DNA of 64,000 nucleotides, from contig DHGX01000001.1 in NCBI GenBank assembly GCA_002402995.1, positions 85,625 to 149,624 on the forward strand, given 5' to 3'. The notes under the pieces are model-generated. The model saw nothing but the letters and a program-made list of their open reading frames with translations. It did not search any database and was not told where the DNA came from. This DNA comes from Patescibacteria group bacterium UBA4787 (lineage in GTDB: Bacteria > Patescibacteriota > Patescibacteriia > UBA2591 > UBA4787). Shown here piece after piece: positions 8,298 to 50,486 of the stretch (its first letter is position 1; every line of letters starts with the position of its first letter). A program made the position numbers and the translations under genes.

Positions 8298-9869
8298 ATG
8301 AGAATCCCAAAAGTTTTTGGCATAGAAACCGAATGGTCTGTTCGTGTTCGAACGCGCAATAGCGTCAGGTTAGCTAACGCCAAAGAATTCGGCGTATTAA
8401 TAAAATTTATACGCGAATTTTTTACTTTGACCAACACCAGACAAGATTCCCAATGGGAGGCTTGTTCGGTTGATGCTGACCGCGAGTTAGAGCAAGAAAT
8501 AGATCTGCGGCATATCGAGAGTGTTGGTTATCTACCGAACGGCGCTCGTTTATATGTCGACTGGCCGCATTTGGAATATTCAACGCCCGAATGTCAGACG
8601 ATTCGTGATTTAATCGCCGCTGACCAAGCTGGCAATTGGCTGCTTAATATGGCCGCCAAAAAAGCCAGTCAACTCTTGAAAAGAGAGATTATAATTATCA
8701 AAGATAATTCCGATCGCAAAGGCGTTTCTTATGCCAGCCACGAGAATTATTCTTTGCAGCCCAGAACATTTAAGGCCATGATCGACCGACAGAACAGCGA
8801 AGCTCGCGATTTGATTTTGCCGTTTTTGGTAACGCGTCAAATTTTGGCCGGAGCCGGCAAAGTTGGTTCCGAAGCTAATAATTTGAGATCTGCAGATTAC
8901 GGCGAAACAAATTTTCAGATTTCGCAACGCGCAGATTTTATCAATGAAATTATCGGTATCGCCACTACGTCGCCGCGCAATCTGATCAACAGGCGCGATG
9001 AACCACATGCTGATTCTGATCTCTGCCGGCGATTGCATGTTATTATTGGTGATGCCAATTTCTGCGATTGGTCTTATTTTTTGCGCGTTGGAACCTACGC
9101 TCTGGTTTTGCGCATGCTGGAAGATTGCTTTATCGGCAATTCGCCAGTTTGTGTCGACAACCACTGGCTCGAAGCGCTTTATCAGACCTCGCGAGATTTG
9201 ACATGCAAGAAGAAGTTGCAGATTGGCACGGCTAGTCAATCACAGATGAATCCGATCGAGATTCAGCGTTGGTATCTTGGCTTAGTCAAGGAATATCTTG
9301 CCGAGTTTAAAGGCAGCGCCGAAGATCATGAGGTTTGTGAAAAATGGGAATATGTTTTAAACGCTCTGGACAACGACCCGAACCAATTGTTCGGCGTCTT
9401 GGACTGGGTAACAAAGAAATGTATTCTTGATCAATATCTTCAACACCAAGGCTTGCTTTGGCAGGATTCTCGGCTCCGTGTAATCGACATAGCTTACCAC
9501 AATATTAGCGATGAGGCTGGTCTTTATTATCAATTTTTAAAAAAAGGGAAAATCCAGAAATTGATTAATAACGAGTTGTTAATGGATAGGGTTCATAATC
9601 CTCCCGTTGACACACGCGCCTATTTGCGCGGAAAGATCGCTCGGCTTTATCCTGAGTTTGTGGAAGATTGGGAGATAATTTCCAATCGCATGCCAAGTAG
9701 ATTTCGTAAGGAACAGTTGGATTCGTTAAGGGTTATCCTAGAAGAAAAACACATTATTACTTTGGGTAACCCGGTTTTAACGCGAGAAGAGAGCGAAGAA
9801 ATTTTCAAACAAATTATTAATCTTTTGAAATCATGGAAAGGAGGAAGCGAAGATGTTAACACGACTTGA
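8298..9869 (+). CDS. dop: Pup deamidase/depupylase Dop-like (PafA/Dop family)
   Basis: FGIETEW, Trp-containing Dop-loop-like insert, NGARLYVDWPHLEYSTPEC, KDNSDRKGVSYASHENY (Dop type), ISQRADF, RDEPHAD, RRLHVIIGDAN, PPVDTRAYLRG. Confidence 0.85.
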   Translation: MRIPKVFGIETEWSVRVRTRNSVRLANAKEFGVLIKFIREFFTLTNTRQDSQWEACSVDADRELEQEIDLRHIESVGYLPNGARLYVDWPHLEYSTPECQTIRDLIAADQAGNWLLNMAAKKASQLLKREIIIIKDNSDRKGVSYASHENYSLQPRTFKAMIDRQNSEARDLILPFLVTRQILAGAGKVGSEANNLRSADYGETNFQISQRADFINEIIGIATTSPRNLINRRDEPHADSDLCRRLHVIIGDANFCDWSYFLRVGTYALVLRMLEDCFIGNSPVCVDNHWLEALYQTSRDLTCKKKLQIGTASQSQMNPIEIQRWYLGLVKEYLAEFKGSAEDHEVCEKWEYVLNALDNDPNQLFGVLDWVTKKCILDQYLQHQGLLWQDSRLRVIDIAYHNISDEAGLYYQFLKKGKIQKLINNELLMDRVHNPPVDTRAYLRGKIARLYPEFVEDWEIISNRMPSRFRKEQLDSLRVILEEKHIITLGNPVLTREESEEIFKQIINLLKSWKGGSEDVNTT

Positions 9870-10602
9870 GTTGACTTGGCGATTAATGGATGAGCTAATC
9901 GCTCAATTCCTGAAATTGCCGAGCGCGATAGGACAGAGCGACTTTAAACTGGAAGAGTATTTACAGCAATCCCATCTTCACGGTACCACCGTCCTCGCTC
10001 TGAAATATCAGGGTGGAGTGCTGTTAGGTGGAGACGGTCGGGCTTCCGGCATGGATTTCCGTATTTTTACGGACAAAACTCCGAAGGTTTATCCGGTTTC
10101 CGAGTCGACTGCTTACGGTCTTTCTGGGGACGCTCATCTGGGTATTGAGGTGGGAAAGATCTTGGCTTTGACGCTTAAGAATTACGAGAAGAAAGAGTTT
10201 CGAGCCATGAGTTTTGTCGCTCAAACCAAGATGTTGGCTAAAATGATCGAGCGTTTACTGCCAATGGCTATGCAGGGCCGTATCGTGATGCCGATTTTCG
10301 TGTCATGTCAGGAAATCTGCACGATTTATCCGAATGGCATGGTGGTAAGGGGAGATGAAGGTTATGGTGGAATTGGTTCGGGTAGTCCTCACGCCATTCA
10401 TCGCATCAAGGCTCGTTTGGCTGATAACCCCAATCCAGATAAAACCAGGGCGATAGAAATTATACTCGAAGCTTTTGCGGAAGCTCATAAGAGTGATGCC
10501 GCAACCGGCTCTAATTTGCTGATTTATAGTCTGGAAGAGTCGGGAATCGCTATCGTTCGCAACGATGTCGGAAACGGACCGTTTTCGATGAACCTGTTGT
10601 AA
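9853..10602 (+). CDS. prcB: 20S proteasome beta subunit with propeptide
   Basis: Autocleavage site HG|TTVLAL, GDGRAS (Asp17), Lys33 in TPKVY, GIGSGS, SDAATG. Confidence 0.9.
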   Translation: MLTRLELTWRLMDELIAQFLKLPSAIGQSDFKLEEYLQQSHLHGTTVLALKYQGGVLLGGDGRASGMDFRIFTDKTPKVYPVSESTAYGLSGDAHLGIEVGKILALTLKNYEKKEFRAMSFVAQTKMLAKMIERLLPMAMQGRIVMPIFVSCQEICTIYPNGMVVRGDEGYGGIGSGSPHAIHRIKARLADNPNPDKTRAIEIILEAFAEAHKSDAATGSNLLIYSLEESGIAIVRNDVGNGPFSMNLL

Positions 10603-10617
10603 TCGTGAGGTGAAATA

Positions 10618-11322
10618 ATGGCTGATAAATTGGATCTCATTGCCAACGACAAAGATAATGCCTTGCCGGTTATCGCAGTCAGCACCAAAGACGGCATACT
10701 TCTTGTCGCAATTAATTTTTCCATTAGTCCGGAGGATTCCGATACCTACATCCACAAACTTTCAGAGATCCATGACAATATCGGCATGGGCGCTTGTGGC
10801 AATAGCAGCGAGTATGATCCGCTGCGCAGGCAGTTTATCGACGTCGTTGATAGGCTTGCCTACGAGTTGTCCAAGGACGATATTGTCTTGAAGAGTCTGG
10901 CCAATAGTTTGGCCGGAGAGTTGCGCGATGTATATCGCAATCCCCGTCTGGTTCCTCGTGTGGTCTTCTTCGTCTTGGTGGAATGTCAGGAAGATTCGAA
11001 GCGGGATCGTTTCGTCCGGATCGGTCTCGACGGCAAGTTCAAGATCTTTAATAATTTCACGGTGATCGGCGGCAACGACAAAGAGGTTGGCGCTCTAATG
11101 GATAACCTCAGGTCCGTCGAATTTTTGGAGATGGACTGGCCGACCGCTTTAACCGCGATCAAGGAAGCGATAAAGAAAACCAACATCGCCCGGATCGCTG
11201 GCGCAAAGAAATCGGACAAGACCGTCGAACCGTTCCCATCCCTGGAGCTGGCAATTCTCTGGCGTGGAAGAACTGGCAGAAAATGGCAGCTTTTGCCGCA
11301 TCAAATTAAGGAGGTGAAATAA
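10618..11322 (+). CDS. prcA: 20S proteasome alpha subunit, divergent with short N-terminus
   Basis: VIAVSTKDGILLVA, HKLSEIHDNIGMGACG..SEYDPLR, LELAILWR; directly after prcB. Confidence 0.82.
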   Translation: MADKLDLIANDKDNALPVIAVSTKDGILLVAINFSISPEDSDTYIHKLSEIHDNIGMGACGNSSEYDPLRRQFIDVVDRLAYELSKDDIVLKSLANSLAGELRDVYRNPRLVPRVVFFVLVECQEDSKRDRFVRIGLDGKFKIFNNFTVIGGNDKEVGALMDNLRSVEFLEMDWPTALTAIKEAIKKTNIARIAGAKKSDKTVEPFPSLELAILWRGRTGRKWQLLPHQIKEVK

Positions 11323-11323
11323 A

Positions 11324-11527
11324 ATGCTTAAAAAGCAGTTTCTATTCTTAACCCCAGACGAGCAAGAAAAAAAGGAGACTGAAAAACATCCTCTGGGGCC
11401 CAAGCCCGGCGGACCTGGCTCCGGTAAGAAGGCAGACAAAAATGATGATAACATCGATGACATCCTTGATGACATCATCGAACGGAATAAGCGGGTTAAT
11501 GAAACTGACGAGCGAGAGGGTCAGTAA
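11324..11527 (+). CDS. Prokaryotic ubiquitin-like modifier (Pup/UBact-like), 67 aa, C-terminus REGQ
   Basis: Strong SD AAGGAGGTG; small, acidic, disorder-prone; IDDILDDI helix; terminal G-Q; lies between prcA and pafA. Confidence 0.85.
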   Translation: MLKKQFLFLTPDEQEKKETEKHPLGPKPGGPGSGKKADKNDDNIDDILDDIIERNKRVNETDEREGQ

Positions 11528-11532
11528 TATTT

Positions 11533-11568
11533 AATCCCCGCACTTTAAAATAGTGCGGGGATTTTTTT
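11533..11568 (+). terminator. Intrinsic terminator after dop-prcB-prcA-modifier
   Basis: AATCCCCGCACT-loop-AGTGCGGGGATT followed by a T run. Confidence 0.85.
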
Positions 11569-11672
11569 ATAATCGCAATGAGCGAGGCAGCAGAAATTTT
11601 ATTTTTAGATTGCCGGACAGGTCAGATTATATATTGAAGAGAGGCATAGTTCTCCTCTTCTTCTATTTTAAT

Positions 11673-11747
11673 TTGACAAATCATCAAAAAAAGATAAGAT
11701 TTATATAAGAAAAATAATAATGTTGTTCCTTAAAATTATTCAAGGAG
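11673..11747 (+). promoter_or_regulatory. Promoter, boxA-like motif and SD upstream of pafA copy 1
   Basis: TTGACA 11673-11678, TAAGAT 11695-11700 (16-bp spacer), GTTCCTTAAAA 11725-11735, AAGGAG 11742-11747. Confidence 0.6.
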
Positions 11748-11755
11748 AGAATAAA

Positions 11756-13285
11756 ATGAAGAAGAGAATTATTGGGATAGAGAATGAATATCGGATTCAG
11801 GCTCTGCCCGGATTCGATAAAAGCAGATACAAGGTTTATTTTCGGGGATTGAAAATAAGCTTGAATCAGTTTCTATCCAACGGAGCGAGGTTTTATTTGG
11901 ATTTTCCGAGCGAACTGCCGGAGTATTGCACGCCGGAAGTTACGACCATCCGTGAAGTTCTGGCGCATGAACGCGCCGGAGATTATATTGTCTGGGAGAG
12001 CCTGAAAGACATGATGGAAATTTTTAGGCGGAATACCAGTCAGCCAGGTCTCTTTTACAAATATCTGGCAAGTGGTTGTCATGAGAACTATCTTTTTTAT
12101 CTTGATGAAGCTATCAAGTCAACTGCGAATATCTACCCGCAGATGAGCGGCCACATCTTGGCAAGATTGGTGGCTTTTTTGGGGCCCTTCTTGGTCTCTC
12201 GACAGATTTTTTGCGGCGCTGGTTGGTGGTTAACAAATGAAGATGGGCGAAGTTATTTTAATATTTCGCAGCGCGCCCATTTTATGAAGCGTGATTACGG
12301 CGGAGACACGATGCAGAATAGGGCGATTATCAATTCTCGGAATGAATCATTGTGTTCGTCGAGCAATTATTCTCGTCTTCATCTCATTGTTGGCGACTCC
12401 AATATGAGCGATCTCTCTGGTTTTCTCAAGCTCGGCACCACGTCTATCGTTTTAAGGATGATCGAAGCAGGCTTCTTTGATCCACAAGACATTGTTCTAG
12501 TTGATCCGGTTGCGGCTATCGCTGTCATTTCCGATGATTTGAGCTGTAAGGCGACTGTCCAGGCCGGCGGTTTGCATCGTTCGCTTTCAGCCATTGACAT
12601 CCAAGAGTGGTATCTTAATAAAGCTCGTGAATTTTTTGAATGTCGAGAAGTATCCGAAGAGGAGAAGGAGGTTATAAAATATTGGCAGGAAGTTTTGGAC
12701 AAACTGCGCCGAGACCCCATGCTTCTCAAAGAGGAGATCGACTGGGTGATCAAATATAATTTGATTTGCCGTTATGCTGAAAAACACGGTGTTGATCTCG
12801 ATCATTGTTCGGACGAGGAGAGTGAAGCGCTGAGAGTCATTGACACTCATTATCATTCTCTAAATCCGGAGAGAGGTTTGTACCACAAGCTTCTCGGCGC
12901 TGGGAAGATCGCCAAGCTTATTAGTGATAAAGAGGTGGCTTTGGCAATAAAATCTCCACCGACTGATACGCGAGCCAAAGTCCGTGGTGACTTCATTTCT
13001 TTCATCCTGAAAAATCATGCGGATTTGGTTAGGTATTTCATCGTCAATTGGGACGCTATTCGTTATAATTATCGTGCTAATGGATTTTCTAGGCTGATCC
13101 ACGAATTTCAACCTAATCAAGACGATGAATCGGTGAAAGCCTGTGTTTTCAATCTCGGCGATCCGTTTCTTTCAACAGAAACTTGCAACAACTTCCAAGT
13201 ATTGGTTGAAGAGATTGAGTCTCACCAAGAATTTTTCAAATCTATGATACCAACTCCGTCTCCTGACCATCGCGATTATGAATAG
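11756..13285 (+). CDS. pafA: Pup--protein ligase PafA-like, copy 1 (start moved to the SD-preceded ATG at 11756)
   Basis: KRIIGIENEY, FLSNGARFYLD, GCHENY, FLVSRQIFCGAG, ISQRA, RLHLIVGDSNMS, LKLGTT, EIDWVIK, PPTDTRAKVRG; no Dop loop. Confidence 0.85.
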   Translation: MKKRIIGIENEYRIQALPGFDKSRYKVYFRGLKISLNQFLSNGARFYLDFPSELPEYCTPEVTTIREVLAHERAGDYIVWESLKDMMEIFRRNTSQPGLFYKYLASGCHENYLFYLDEAIKSTANIYPQMSGHILARLVAFLGPFLVSRQIFCGAGWWLTNEDGRSYFNISQRAHFMKRDYGGDTMQNRAIINSRNESLCSSSNYSRLHLIVGDSNMSDLSGFLKLGTTSIVLRMIEAGFFDPQDIVLVDPVAAIAVISDDLSCKATVQAGGLHRSLSAIDIQEWYLNKAREFFECREVSEEEKEVIKYWQEVLDKLRRDPMLLKEEIDWVIKYNLICRYAEKHGVDLDHCSDEESEALRVIDTHYHSLNPERGLYHKLLGAGKIAKLISDKEVALAIKSPPTDTRAKVRGDFISFILKNHADLVRYFIVNWDAIRYNYRANGFSRLIHEFQPNQDDESVKACVFNLGDPFLSTETCNNFQVLVEEIESHQEFFKSMIPTPSPDHRDYE

Positions 13286-13325
13286 TCCCGTTCTGGCTGA
13301 TTGAAATCCCCATTTTATTTTTATT

Positions 13326-13353
13326 AACGCTCCTAAATAATTAGGAGCGTTTT
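13326..13353 (+). terminator. Intrinsic terminator after pafA copy 1
   Basis: AACGCTCCTA-AATAAT-TAGGAGCGTT followed by T. Confidence 0.8.
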
Positions 13354-13357
13354 AAAT

Positions 13358-13416
13358 TTGACAAATTATCAAAAAACGCTAAGCTTTAAATAATAAAATT
13401 AAAATCGTTCTTTACA
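13358..13416 (+). promoter_or_regulatory. Promoter and boxA-like motif upstream of pafA copy 2, near-duplicate of the copy 1 promoter
   Basis: TTGACAAATTATCAAAAAACGCTAAGCT versus TTGACAAATCATCAAAAAAAGATAAGAT; GTTCTTTACA 13407-13416. Confidence 0.6.
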
Positions 13417-13430
13417 AAGAAGGGAATAAA

Positions 13431-14900
13431 ATGCAAAAACGCATTTATGGTTTGGAGACTGAGTATAGGTGGTGGAGTTCCTTGCCGGAGAAAAACCCCG
13501 ATAATCCGAGTCAGGTTTTTTCCGGATATCATTTGAATACTATAGTCAATTACTATCCGGGTAATTATTCTGGCTTTTTGCCAAACGGCGCTAGGTTTTA
13601 TGTGGACATGGTTCGGTTTCCAGAGTTCTCAACTCCGGAATGTGCGAGTGTTAGAGATGCCGTGATTTGGGATAAGGCAGGGGAAAAAATAGTTTTCGAT
13701 TGTTTGGGCGGCGCTGTTGTCATCCGAAAAAGAAATTTAGGCAGCAACGGAAAAGTACAGGGTTGCCACGAGAATTATTTGATCGATCGCCAGGTCTTAT
13801 TGAAAGATCGCGACATCTCTCTCGGTCATGTCCATTTGGTCGAACGAGACTTTAATTATTTGGCCGATCGTCTAATTCCTTTTTTGGTGACGCGCCAGGT
13901 TTTCTGCGGCACCGGCGCCATTATGGAGTTCCCACAAATTCAGATAGGGGAAAATCCTTCAACTCAGTGTTTATATCGCTATGTCATTTCACAGCGAGCT
14001 TTCAGAATCGAGCATTTAATCCACGCCGAGACTACTAATAATCGGCCGATCATTAACATGCGCAATGAGCCTCTGTGCGGTGGCGACGAGAGATATTTCC
14101 GCCTGCATCTGATTCTGGGTGATTCTAATCTTTCAGAGTTTTCGACTTTCTTGAAATTGGGTACTACTGGCATAATCTTGCGGATGATTGAGGCTGATTT
14201 TTTAGACACAACCAGTATTGCTCTGCTTGATCCATTAGCAGCTCTTCGGCAAGTCGCGATAGATCCGACTTGCAAAAAAAGGCTAGACTTGGTTGATCAA
14301 CGTCAGTTTTCAGCTATCGACATTCAACAGTGGTATCTCGACAAAGCCAATAAGTTCTTCCAGCGCAACGAAGCTTCAGAAGAGGAAAAAGAAGTGATTG
14401 AGCGTTGGCAAGAAACGTTGGACAAACTGCGCCGAGACCCCATGCTTCTCAAAGAGGAGATCGACTGGGTGATCAAGCTCAACGCTTTGATAAGATATTG
14501 CGAATCTCGCAATTTATCTTTTGACAGCGAAGAAGCAAGGCGTCTTGACGTGGCTTATCATGATCTTGATCCGGATAATTCTCTCTACTTAAAACTTCTT
14601 AAACGTGGTCGCGTCAAGAGGTTAGTTGCCGAGGAAGAGATCGAGAACGCCATTGTTAATCCGCCCGATACGCGCGCCAAAATTAGAGGTTCTGTTATAC
14701 TGGCAATCAACGATTATATTAATCGTTCGTCTATTGGCCGTGATCGCGGCATCTTAATAAACTGGGATTTGGTTTCTGTGTATGCTTCTACGATTCCTCC
14801 TACCACTACTTCTGATAAGATAATAACACTAAGCGATCCTTTCGCGGTGGAAAATTCGGAAATCCAGGCTCTAGTCAACCAATTAAATGCTACACTTTAA
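13431..14900 (+). CDS. pafA: Pup--protein ligase PafA-like, copy 2
   Basis: MQKRIYGLETEY, FLPNGARFYVD, PEFSTPEC, QGCHENY, FLVTRQVFCGTG, TTNNRPIIN, RLHLILGDSN, PPDTRAKIRG. Confidence 0.85.
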   Translation: MQKRIYGLETEYRWWSSLPEKNPDNPSQVFSGYHLNTIVNYYPGNYSGFLPNGARFYVDMVRFPEFSTPECASVRDAVIWDKAGEKIVFDCLGGAVVIRKRNLGSNGKVQGCHENYLIDRQVLLKDRDISLGHVHLVERDFNYLADRLIPFLVTRQVFCGTGAIMEFPQIQIGENPSTQCLYRYVISQRAFRIEHLIHAETTNNRPIINMRNEPLCGGDERYFRLHLILGDSNLSEFSTFLKLGTTGIILRMIEADFLDTTSIALLDPLAALRQVAIDPTCKKRLDLVDQRQFSAIDIQQWYLDKANKFFQRNEASEEEKEVIERWQETLDKLRRDPMLLKEEIDWVIKLNALIRYCESRNLSFDSEEARRLDVAYHDLDPDNSLYLKLLKRGRVKRLVAEEEIENAIVNPPDTRAKIRGSVILAINDYINRSSIGRDRGILINWDLVSVYASTIPPTTTSDKIITLSDPFAVENSEIQALVNQLNATL

Positions 14901-20979: not shown

Positions 20980-21264
20980 ATGGCAAAGAATTTATTCGTA
21001 GGGAATCTTCCTTACAAAACCACCGGCGACGATTTAAAAAATATGTTCGCCCAAGCTGGAGAAGTCGAATCAGCTAGCGTTATCTCCGACAAATTTTCCG
21101 GTCGTTCACGAGGTTTCGGCTTCGTAGAAATGGCCGACGAAGATGCGGCCCAAGCAGCCATTAAGATGTTTAATGACTATGATATCGAAGGTCGTAAGTT
21201 GTTAGTTAACGAAGCTCGACCCAGGCAAGAAGGTGGTCGACGCAGCAATTTTGACAGAAATTAA
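20980..21264 (+). CDS. RRM (RNP-1) RNA-binding protein
   Basis: LFVGNL (RNP2) and RGFGFVEM (RNP1). Confidence 0.95.
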   Translation: MAKNLFVGNLPYKTTGDDLKNMFAQAGEVESASVISDKFSGRSRGFGFVEMADEDAAQAAIKMFNDYDIEGRKLLVNEARPRQEGGRRSNFDRN

Positions 21265-21290: not shown

Positions 21291-21320
21291 AAAAAGCAGC
21301 CCCGTCAGGGGCTGCTTTTA
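21291..21320 (+). terminator. Bidirectional intrinsic terminator
   Basis: AAAAAGCAGCCCC-GTCA-GGGGCTGCTTTT. Confidence 0.85.
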
Positions 21321-21341: not shown

Positions 21342-21553
21342 GGCAAGCAAGGGGAGTTGAACCCCTGTTATCAACTTACTCGTCCTCCGCAGCAGCAGAA
21401 AGCGAGTGAGGGGAATCGAACCCCTGTCATCAGCTTGGAAAGCTGAGGTAATGCCATTATACGACACTCGCACGAACTGTTACGGAGGATGGAGAAAGCT
21501 TCCACCGTCGTTGAAACAACTATGGCGGACAAGGAGGTAATACCGATACCTGC
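21342..21553 (-). pseudogene. Degenerate tRNA-Gly 'shell' interrupted by two palindromic insertions, one carrying the intact tRNA-Gly
   Basis: Minus strand: GCAGGTA TC GGTATTACCTC [ins] AGCTTTC [ins+tRNA] AAGTTGATAAC AGGGGTTCAACTCCCCT TGCTTGC; acceptor stem still pairs; aligns to the inner tRNA-Gly but lacks the 5' D-arm. Confidence 0.7.
21401..21471 (-). tRNA. tRNA-Gly(TCC)
   Basis: GCGAGTGTCGTATAATGGCATTACCTCAGCTTTCCAAGCTGATGACAGGGGTTCGATTCCCCTCACTCGCT folds as a cloverleaf. Confidence 0.95.
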
Positions 21554-21583: not shown

Positions 21584-22375
21584 TTAACGCTCCTTATTCT
21601 TATCAATAATCGATTTATAGTATTTTTCTATATCGAGATCAATTTCATCAATTAAATACGGGCCGCCCACTCCAGCGAGTTTGGGTGCGCGCATCCAATT
21701 ACGAACCCTATCGTCAATACGATATTCACGCAAACCAGAAACCAGATATAAATAGCGTGGATTTTTTTCTCGATAAAGATTTTTATAGGTAGCGGCATAA
21801 AAAGCCATAGGTATATCTTGGTCTCGTTCATCCATTTCTGTACCTATGATATTAAATAGAGAGCCGCCGCCCGCCAAATTCTTTTTAGAAATTTCTTGAT
21901 TAGACGTATGATAACCTAAATATCGTCCGAGTTCTTGCGATATTTCGGCGATGCCCCAAAATATTGCTTCGGCAAATGCCGTTGGATTATTTTTTATTTC
22001 TGGTTTGTTTTCCACGTTTTCTTCAATAACCACTCTGATTACCTTCAAACGATTCTCGATTGGTGTAGCCAGAACAGCATCAACTACATCTCTGTTTTTT
22101 TGTTTTTTGACTAAACTAACAAATTCGTTTACAACTTTTTCTTCTAGGCCGACTTTTTTTAAGTCGTTGATAAAATCTAGCAGGATTTTCGAAAAAGCAA
22201 TTTCTCGAAAAATAATTTCTCTAATTTTTTCGCCCTCTTTCTCACTACCGGGTTCGTGGAATTCGGCCGTCTCCCTGAAAATCGTTTCTTTCTGGTCAAA
22301 GATTTCTGTAATCGGTTTTTCGGATTTTTTACCGACGATTTCTTGTTTGAATGTTGGTTTTTCAAAGGGAGTCAT
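21584..22375 (-). CDS. Hypothetical protein
   Basis: 263-aa ORF with CPR-style charged N-terminus; GYHTS and FYA..YKNLY motifs of unknown function. Confidence 0.7.
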   Translation of the reverse strand: MTPFEKPTFKQEIVGKKSEKPITEIFDQKETIFRETAEFHEPGSEKEGEKIREIIFREIAFSKILLDFINDLKKVGLEEKVVNEFVSLVKKQKNRDVVDAVLATPIENRLKVIRVVIEENVENKPEIKNNPTAFAEAIFWGIAEISQELGRYLGYHTSNQEISKKNLAGGGSLFNIIGTEMDERDQDIPMAFYAATYKNLYREKNPRYLYLVSGLREYRIDDRVRNWMRAPKLAGVGGPYLIDEIDLDIEKYYKSIIDKNKER

Positions 22376-50295: not shown

Positions 50296-50486
50296 TGGGC
50301 ATTTAGTCCACCAGCTGGTGGAGAACCCTAGTCCTCTTCCGCCTGCCCCGTTAAATTTCTGAATGGGCGACCAAGGAATCGAACCCTGTTCTCTTCCGTG
50401 TAAAGGAAATGTTTTACCATTAAACTAGTCGCCCAAGATTAATTTAACGGGGTGGATAAAGGAAGCTTAATCCCTTTATAATACCC
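50296..50486 (-). pseudogene. Degenerate tRNA-Val 'shell' interrupted by an IR element carrying the intact tRNA-Val and by a REP-like palindrome in the T-arm
   Basis: Minus strand: GGGTATT..CTTCCTTTA [ins+tRNA] CGGAAGAGGACTAGGGTTC [TCCACCAGCTGGTGGA] CTA AATGCCCA; acceptor and anticodon stems still pair. Confidence 0.7.
50364..50434 (-). tRNA. tRNA-Val(TAC)
   Basis: GGGCGACTAGTTTAATGGTAAAACATTTCCTTTACACGGAAGAGAACAGGGTTCGATTCCTTGGTCGCCCA. Confidence 0.95.

Follow-up and report, generated by a model that had tools for sequence, protein, structure and literature searches.

Layout of the nested tRNA-Gly locus

The window (the whole stretch of DNA that was analysed, 64,000 nucleotides) belongs to a genome of 765,527 bases that is 99% complete and has 47 called tRNA genes. 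All parts of the nested tRNA-Gly locus are on the minus strand. On that strand the order is outer 5′ half, 22-nt arm, intact tRNA, complementary 22-nt arm and outer 3′ half. The features of the locus and of its neighbourhood are as follows.

20980 to 21264, plus strand: ORF of 94 amino acids, convergent with the tRNA locus, a synteny marker; presumably an RNA-binding, RRM-type sequence.
21292 to 21319, no strand assigned: terminator-like hairpin (putative function) that separates the convergent RRM gene from the tRNA locus.
21342 to 21378, minus strand: outer 3′ half, from position 36 to the acceptor end; the T-arm still pairs and CCA is lost.
21379 to 21400, minus strand: right arm of the cassette, 22 nt, delimited by comparison with copies elsewhere.
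21401 to 21471, minus strand: cargo tRNA-Gly(TCC), intact, no encoded CCA; called by ARAGORN and Rfam (63.5 bits), with the same 71 nt in genome G001.
21472 to 21493, minus strand: left arm of the cassette, 22 nt, matching the left arms of empty and loaded copies elsewhere.
21494 to 21553, minus strand: outer 5′ half of the former resident tRNA-Gly(TCC), positions 1 to 35 with a 7-nt deletion, from alignment to the intact 5′ half in G001.
21501 to 21533, no strand assigned: second palindrome, 33 nt, empty, of a related family, between shell positions 28 and 29; absent from G001.
21584 to 22375, minus strand: ORF of 263 amino acids upstream of the tRNA, a synteny marker.

The insert (21379 to 21493, 115 nt) is made up of a hairpin arm, the tRNA-Gly(TCC) and a second hairpin arm, and has no ORF. 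It is called the cassette here, its tRNA the cargo and the interrupted outer copy the shell; insertion points are written with a slash between the flanking positions. The cassette lies at 35/36 and the two halves of the shell are contiguous, in line with the original prediction of an interruption after position 35 of a second tRNA-Gly. The intact inner tRNA of that prediction is called alike by ARAGORN and Rfam, the inverted repeats flanking it are present as the 22-nt arms, and the T-arm of the outer copy is indeed intact. Four details were corrected. The insert spans the 115 nt given above. The outer D-arm, described as lacking, is missing in part, through the 7-nt deletion relative to G001; the palindrome placed at 21501 to 21529 exists but extends to 21533; and outer position 36 has changed, as described below.

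The cargo is the sole Gly(TCC) gene among the 47 tRNA genes called in the genome. The 226-nt region has a folding energy of −87.3 kcal/mol (z = −4.8), a value equalled by 0 of 200 shuffles. The 64-nt shell, rejoined after removal of both inserts, was scored against a profile built from 27 other Gly(TCC) genes. In this comparison with shuffled sequence, which had been set in advance, it reached 35.0 bits, and the best of 500 dinucleotide shuffles 7.4. A single contig of run X2 covers the stretch with zero differences, so the junctions are spanned at the level of contigs, not reads, by an assembly that may itself be the source of this DNA. The same nesting is found in the independent genome G001 (locus L002, same genus). 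Rfam returned the tRNA plus chance-level matches only at the locus, and no intron family matched. The nested layout of the tRNA-Gly locus is confirmed.

The outer copy as the former resident gene

Beyond the tRNA itself, only G001 matched the locus among 41 genomes searched. Its inner gene is identical over 71 nt and the second palindrome is absent. The G001 shell rejoins to a tRNA-Gly(TCC) with CCA, scoring 111.1 as compared with 111.3 for the inner gene. Because the G001 shell and the cargo differ by three compensatory acceptor pairs, they represent two working alleles and not a local duplicate. The start of the cargo is not shared by any of 20 plain Gly(TCC) genes from relatives.

Contigs of runs X5 and X6, from another study, belong to a close relative, whose 94-amino-acid ORF has 6 differences over 289 nt. 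On a contig of X6 the 263-amino-acid ORF is linked to a tRNA-Gly with only 80 letters between them. On a contig of X5 the RRM end is joined directly to the tRNA, and the outer 3′ half and right arm are skipped. At the loose contig ends of this relative, the start of the gene resembles the shell allele. We read its locus as a plain tRNA-Gly of the outer type, probably the pre-insertion state. Uninterrupted alleles join L002 position 1507 to 1623, with 115 letters skipped and 0 ambiguous; therefore no target duplication is present. By these allele comparisons the outer copy was shown to be the older, former resident gene.

The shell has since changed at a pace that the cargo does not share. Relative to G001 it carries 12 substitutions in 67 aligned nt, the 7-nt deletion and the 33-nt insertion, and CCA is lost. 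The change of G3-C70 to A3-U70 retains pairing. At outer position 36, C has become T and the rejoined shell no longer reads TCC. The cargo shows no change in this comparison, against differences at 20 of 60 fourfold sites in the neighbouring ORF. The second palindrome, with a related copy at C3:34935 of the same genome, was inserted later, when the shell was already dead. For its distance from the genome analysed here, G001 has a surprisingly intact shell; one shared insertion or two separate ones may lie behind the two loci.

On another contig of the same-genus assembly (L201 1490-1655, compared with L002 1600-1663), the right arm and outer 3′ half are duplicated beside the RRM gene, which suggests that an island was inserted together with a repeat of about 60 nt, the cassette arm being part of the repeat. 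A contig of run X9, placed on L002 1524/1604, has the left arm joined to the right arm with unknown sequence between; the site may hold either an empty hairpin or another cargo there.

Empty and loaded copies of the cassette hairpin

Searches with the hairpin ends only, unbiased as to content, gave 16 matches (8 in 6 of 401 phylum genomes and 8 in 7 of 401 class genomes), of which 11 were empty and 5 loaded. The empty hairpins measure 36-43 nt; ten lie outside tRNA sequence and one is in the T-loop of a tRNA pseudogene (L323). All five loaded copies hold a tRNA-Gly within a Gly shell, as listed below.

TCC at 35/36: L251, L322.
CCC at 35/36: L252, L318.
CCC at 55/56: L248.

The element had been described beforehand as tRNA-targeting. 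The hairpin family is not specific to tRNA genes, most empty copies lying outside them, but the loaded copies are in cognate shells. No gene-carrying version of this family occurred among the 16 matches, and the right end had no match in viral contigs. The base after the right end is C in 14 of 15 cases, and the two bases ahead of the left end are pyrimidines in 15 of 16. These positions define a weak insertion target, YY/CR, which is present in both the anticodon loop and the T-loop of tRNA-Gly.

Junction-specific scans added further Gly(TCC) cases, namely 6 of 14 metagenome matches (the other 8 being chance) and L188, L205 and L216 from genome contigs. The right-junction pattern gave 74 genome-contig matches. 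Eight were read by eye, four of them proving relevant, and a T-loop test applied to the whole set of 74 singled out two; the remaining matches look like chance. The Gly(TCC) insertion at 35/36 is found at ten distinct loci, L160, L188 and L322 being repeats of L002 that were counted once. The ten Gly cargos share 41-70 identical positions in pairwise comparison and their spacers differ. This diversity of cargos and spacers suggests, therefore, that loading happened several times. Remnants of different empty-loop variants are seen beside the cargo in the loaded copies L163, L248 and L318.

A sister hairpin family across the class

A sister hairpin family nests many different tRNAs in the same manner across the class. 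A search for a tRNA T-loop with the right end of this family behind it, blind to the downstream sequence, gave 71 places in 59 of 401 class genomes. For classification, 72 loaded sister cassettes were used: 67 of the 71 (four without a tRNA above the score cut were dropped) and five loci from an earlier search. The 3′ flank belonged to the anticodon class of the cargo in 44, to the same amino acid in 5 and to another amino acid in 5, and was left unassigned in 18; shuffled flanks reached the threshold in 7 of 72. By eye, the five flanks of another amino acid are decayed or re-interrupted cognate shells. Both flanks were unassigned in 10 of 72, and no clear loaded cassette was seen at a neutral site. 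The junctions are contiguous (k/k+1) and lie within the D, anticodon and T loops or adjoin them. Both ends were available for 60 sister cassettes; a tRNA was called in 32 of their shells, and 28 of these had the anticodon of the cargo. Of the remaining four, one is a 4-nt call, two are weak calls and one has a single-base change. A pattern of two T-loops was present in 12 of 55 order genomes and 99 of 401 class genomes (reversed control, 0), figures that include plain 3′ duplications and are not a count of nested genes.

Rejoining the shells by brute force with ARAGORN let too much through, passing 91 of 138 candidates as against 87 of 276 shuffled controls, and was rejected. The counts given here rest on fixed element ends instead.

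Individual cases were also noted. Within the window, tRNA-Val(TAC) at 50363-50435 is nested, by a different hairpin, in a decayed Val shell (50296-50486, minus strand) that has another small palindrome in its T-loop. Elsewhere in the same genome (G000, C1:84900-85120), tRNA-Arg(TCG) (at C1:84953) is nested at 33/34 of an older Arg(TCG), and a second hairpin adjoins the right arm. The left arms in L128, L137, L142 and L059 contain an inverted copy of the 3′ end of the cargo, some with CCA, hinting at templated fill-in during capture.

Probable movement and retention of the cassette

Sister cassettes that are 91-95% identical, arms and spacers included, occur at different positions in different host families. 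The pairs are listed below.

L267 at 35/36 and L286 at 23/24.
L285 at 23/24 and L133 at 34/35.
L255 at 33/34 and L257 at 17/18.

It follows from the occurrence of near-identical cassettes at different sites that the loaded cassette moves as a unit. Cargo and shell are identical at a fraction of 0.55-0.96 of positions. Thr cargos of different anticodon are 0.80-0.87 alike, and still the anticodon match is exact. Sequence pairing alone would therefore be insufficient, and selection for decoding would give the precision. Cargo resembles its shell somewhat more than random cognate alleles do (median percentile 0.79, n = 28).

The interpretation that we favour, with reasonable though not full confidence, is that a hairpin-ended, gene-less cassette was probably transposed as a unit into the anticodon loop of the resident tRNA gene and was probably kept as its replacement. 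A miniature element carrying a replacement tRNA had been proposed at the outset, and the hairpin ends found both empty and loaded, the pre-insertion allele, the cognate cargo and the lack of target duplication all agree with it. On several independent occasions, an empty hairpin would have taken up a tRNA gene in its loop. A putative helper enzyme, acting in trans, would then move the cassette into single-stranded loops at YY/CR sites. Non-cognate insertions into tRNA genes would be lethal and redundant copies elsewhere would be lost, so that only self-complementing insertions persist. Judging from the layout and from general knowledge of tRNA genes, the cargo could be transcribed from the promoter of the old gene and released by ordinary tRNA processing, and the shell would decay afterward and accumulate further empty hairpins.

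Several observations go against this interpretation. With no gene-carrying version of the hairpin family among the 16 matches or in viral contigs, mobility is deduced by comparison between copies. The closeness of cargo to shell and the pristine G001 shell, both noted above, count against it too. Pure selection predicts loaded cassettes at neutral sites as well, and none was clear among the 72 examined. Many of the cases concern C34 isoacceptors, which may be dispensable by wobble, yet the cargo is cognate. The empty-loop remnants in loaded copies also fit loading after insertion.

Alternative explanations

Insertion might be guided by the cargo itself, if the tRNA gene as single-stranded DNA, or its RNA, paired with the cognate gene. 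Such guidance would suit the confinement of clear loaded cassettes to cognate shells in the set of 72, though empty hairpins land widely, as well as the cognate cargo even at generic sites such as 23/24 and 55/56 and the median percentile of 0.79. We consider it unlikely. Cargo-shell identity falls to 45 of 74 positions in L251 and 50 of 72 in L159, and isoacceptors of the same amino acid are as alike as cargo and shell while the anticodon match remains exact. In L297 the cognate cargo is inverted, though a later inversion between the arms could explain this. The order of events could also be the reverse, the empty hairpin entering the tRNA gene first and its loop capturing a cognate tRNA from incoming DNA later. 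Many cargo alleles and spacers at the same site within the same ends, remnants of different empty loops adjoining cargo, the empty copy in a tRNA pseudogene (L323) and the left-to-right arm joint of X9 would all fit. The cell, however, would have to survive the loss of a single-copy tRNA, all six true junctions among the 14 metagenome matches are loaded, and near-identical loaded cassettes at different sites indicate that loaded units move; this order is held to be quite improbable.

A functional, intron-like or processing architecture, with excision at the RNA level and outer halves that yield a second tRNA or a regulatory RNA, could draw on the fold of the region into one long stable helix, on the still perfect G001 shell and on the pairing kept by A3-U70. 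The shell of the genome analysed here has nevertheless lost 7 nt, CCA and its anticodon, and gained a second insert; insertion sites are spread over all three loops, and the insert is too short for, and unlike, any Rfam intron family. The tRNA splicing endonuclease (PF01974) and RtcB (PF01139) had no match in this 99%-complete genome, and tRNA splicing at the locus is unlikely. A repair or processing architecture, the other option of the original prediction, is not supported, in view of the decay of the shell beside an identical inner gene, its mutated anticodon and these missing enzyme matches, and is regarded as very improbable. Least credible is an assembly artefact or the chance meeting of two ordinary att-site duplications. 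A few related loci with looped identical repeats do resemble assembly errors (L042; tandem matches in G108), but the inner and outer genes here are different alleles, the layout recurs in independent assemblies and the junctions are contiguous. G001 and the other loci refute this explanation.

Candidate mobilising enzymes

Under the favoured reading, transposition of the cassette as a unit, a helper enzyme would be encoded elsewhere. A search of the same 99%-complete genome gave no match to the Y1 transposase PF01797 and nine GIY-YIG matches, some of them at tRNA shells. Small GIY-YIG nucleases are the best candidate helper. GIY-YIG ORFs occur inside sister hairpins or tRNA shells, and none was found inside the ends of the Gly-cassette family. 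It is tentatively conceivable, though doubtful, that the elements form a new class of single-strand mobile element, in which GIY-YIG enzymes would move the hairpin ends and the cargo gene or its RNA would act as both guide and addiction module.

Several arrangements of these genes were noted. In G000, the Gln(TTG) and Arg(CCT) shells are each interrupted several times, and small GIY-YIG genes lie inside them or next to them (C2:22050-22850 and C1:166150-166950); the one at C2:22257-22502 is hairpin-flanked. In L059 (G257:C18), a single Val shell is interrupted twice: its D-loop hairpin contains a GIY-YIG ORF, which has an internal stop, and its anticodon-loop hairpin contains a tRNA-Val. At L297 (G302:C6:138050-138750), the tRNA-Gly(CCC) cargo is inverted in the T-loop of a Gly(CCC) shell and is followed by a GIY-YIG ORF. 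A CCCCGTTA-ended repeat is spread over all three large contigs of G000, where it numbers more than 40 copies, and some of the copies open GIY-YIG genes.

Comparison with known systems

MITEs normally leave a target duplication. The cassette resembles them in being short and non-coding with terminal inverted repeats, and differs in the lack of a target-site duplication. REP/REPIN sequences with RAYT, IS200/IS605, IS91-type elements and MITEs have short imperfect palindromes, intergenic empty copies and a weak short target motif, and include non-autonomous forms. The cassette is like REP/REPIN-RAYT or IS200/IS605 elements in its dispersed imperfect palindrome, its 11 empty copies and the lack of duplication; unlike them, it has no matching Y1 HUH transposase (PF01797) in its own genome. 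No REP/REPIN, IS200/IS605, IS91-type or MITE family is known to carry a tRNA gene and nothing else.

When integrative elements enter a tRNA att site, a partial duplicate makes the gene whole again, and tRNA introns are spliced out of a conserved host gene. The cassette shares with introns, split tRNAs and att elements the interruption of the anticodon loop and complementary flanks that bring the halves together. Unlike tRNA introns (BHB or group I), it sits in a host tRNA that decays, and no splicing enzymes or ribozyme fold were found.

The closest functional parallel in the sources compared is tRNA-dependent lysogeny of actinobacteriophages. In the part of the report considered here, integration into an essential tRNA gene occurs without its rebuilding, and the element provides an entire tRNA of that isotype, which is needed for survival (Guerrero-Bustamante and Hatfull 2024, PMC10865867). 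At the present locus too, the tRNA gene is not rebuilt, its halves being 115 nt apart and the shell decayed, and the cassette carries a full tRNA of the same isotype. The lysogenic element, as described in that part of the report, is a whole prophage with a tyrosine integrase and an attP/attB core of about 10 bp (PMC10865867). In contrast, the cassette is gene-less, 115 nt long and hairpin-ended, with no shared core and many insertion positions.

Small single-domain GIY-YIG genes, termed Ssn, are flanked by NTS/SRM hairpins, and the authors, in the portion of their paper drawn on here, propose a likeness to insertion sequences (Chenal et al. 2025, PMC11893778). The present genome has nine GIY-YIG matches, some at tRNA shells, and the GIY-YIG ORFs inside sister hairpins or tRNA shells may be of the class of the flanked Ssn genes, CDD cd10448. 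The SRM pattern as given there was, however, unmatched in L247, L249, the second palindrome and the locus. The main text of that report has no mention of tRNA, CPR or Patescibacteria and does not show transposition by Ssn (PMC11893778). Nesting of a whole tRNA in its cognate gene on hairpin arms is undescribed in the literature searched, which comprised texts other than subscription papers and supplements.

The cassette points to an insertion chemistry without target duplication, and this can be tested thanks to its defined ends, its target motif and the existence of both empty and loaded forms. It offers a possible route for replacing single-copy essential tRNA genes with foreign alleles in ultra-small bacteria and would be among the smallest conceivable selfish units. 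The nested pattern is common, the right end of one sister family alone marking it in 59 of 401 class genomes, with consequences for tRNA phylogeny and annotation in Patescibacteria.

Other observations in the genome

At window positions 9853-14900, two ORFs resemble what we take to be proteasome subunits and two others presumably Pup ligase/deamidase proteins, an unusual set for so small a genome. In G000, about 100 nt upstream of tRNA-Ile(GAT) (C1:59799) and of tRNA-Ala(TGC) (C3:152470) lies a 10-11-nt copy of the 5′ end of the respective gene, in each case bracketing a common inverted-repeat element.
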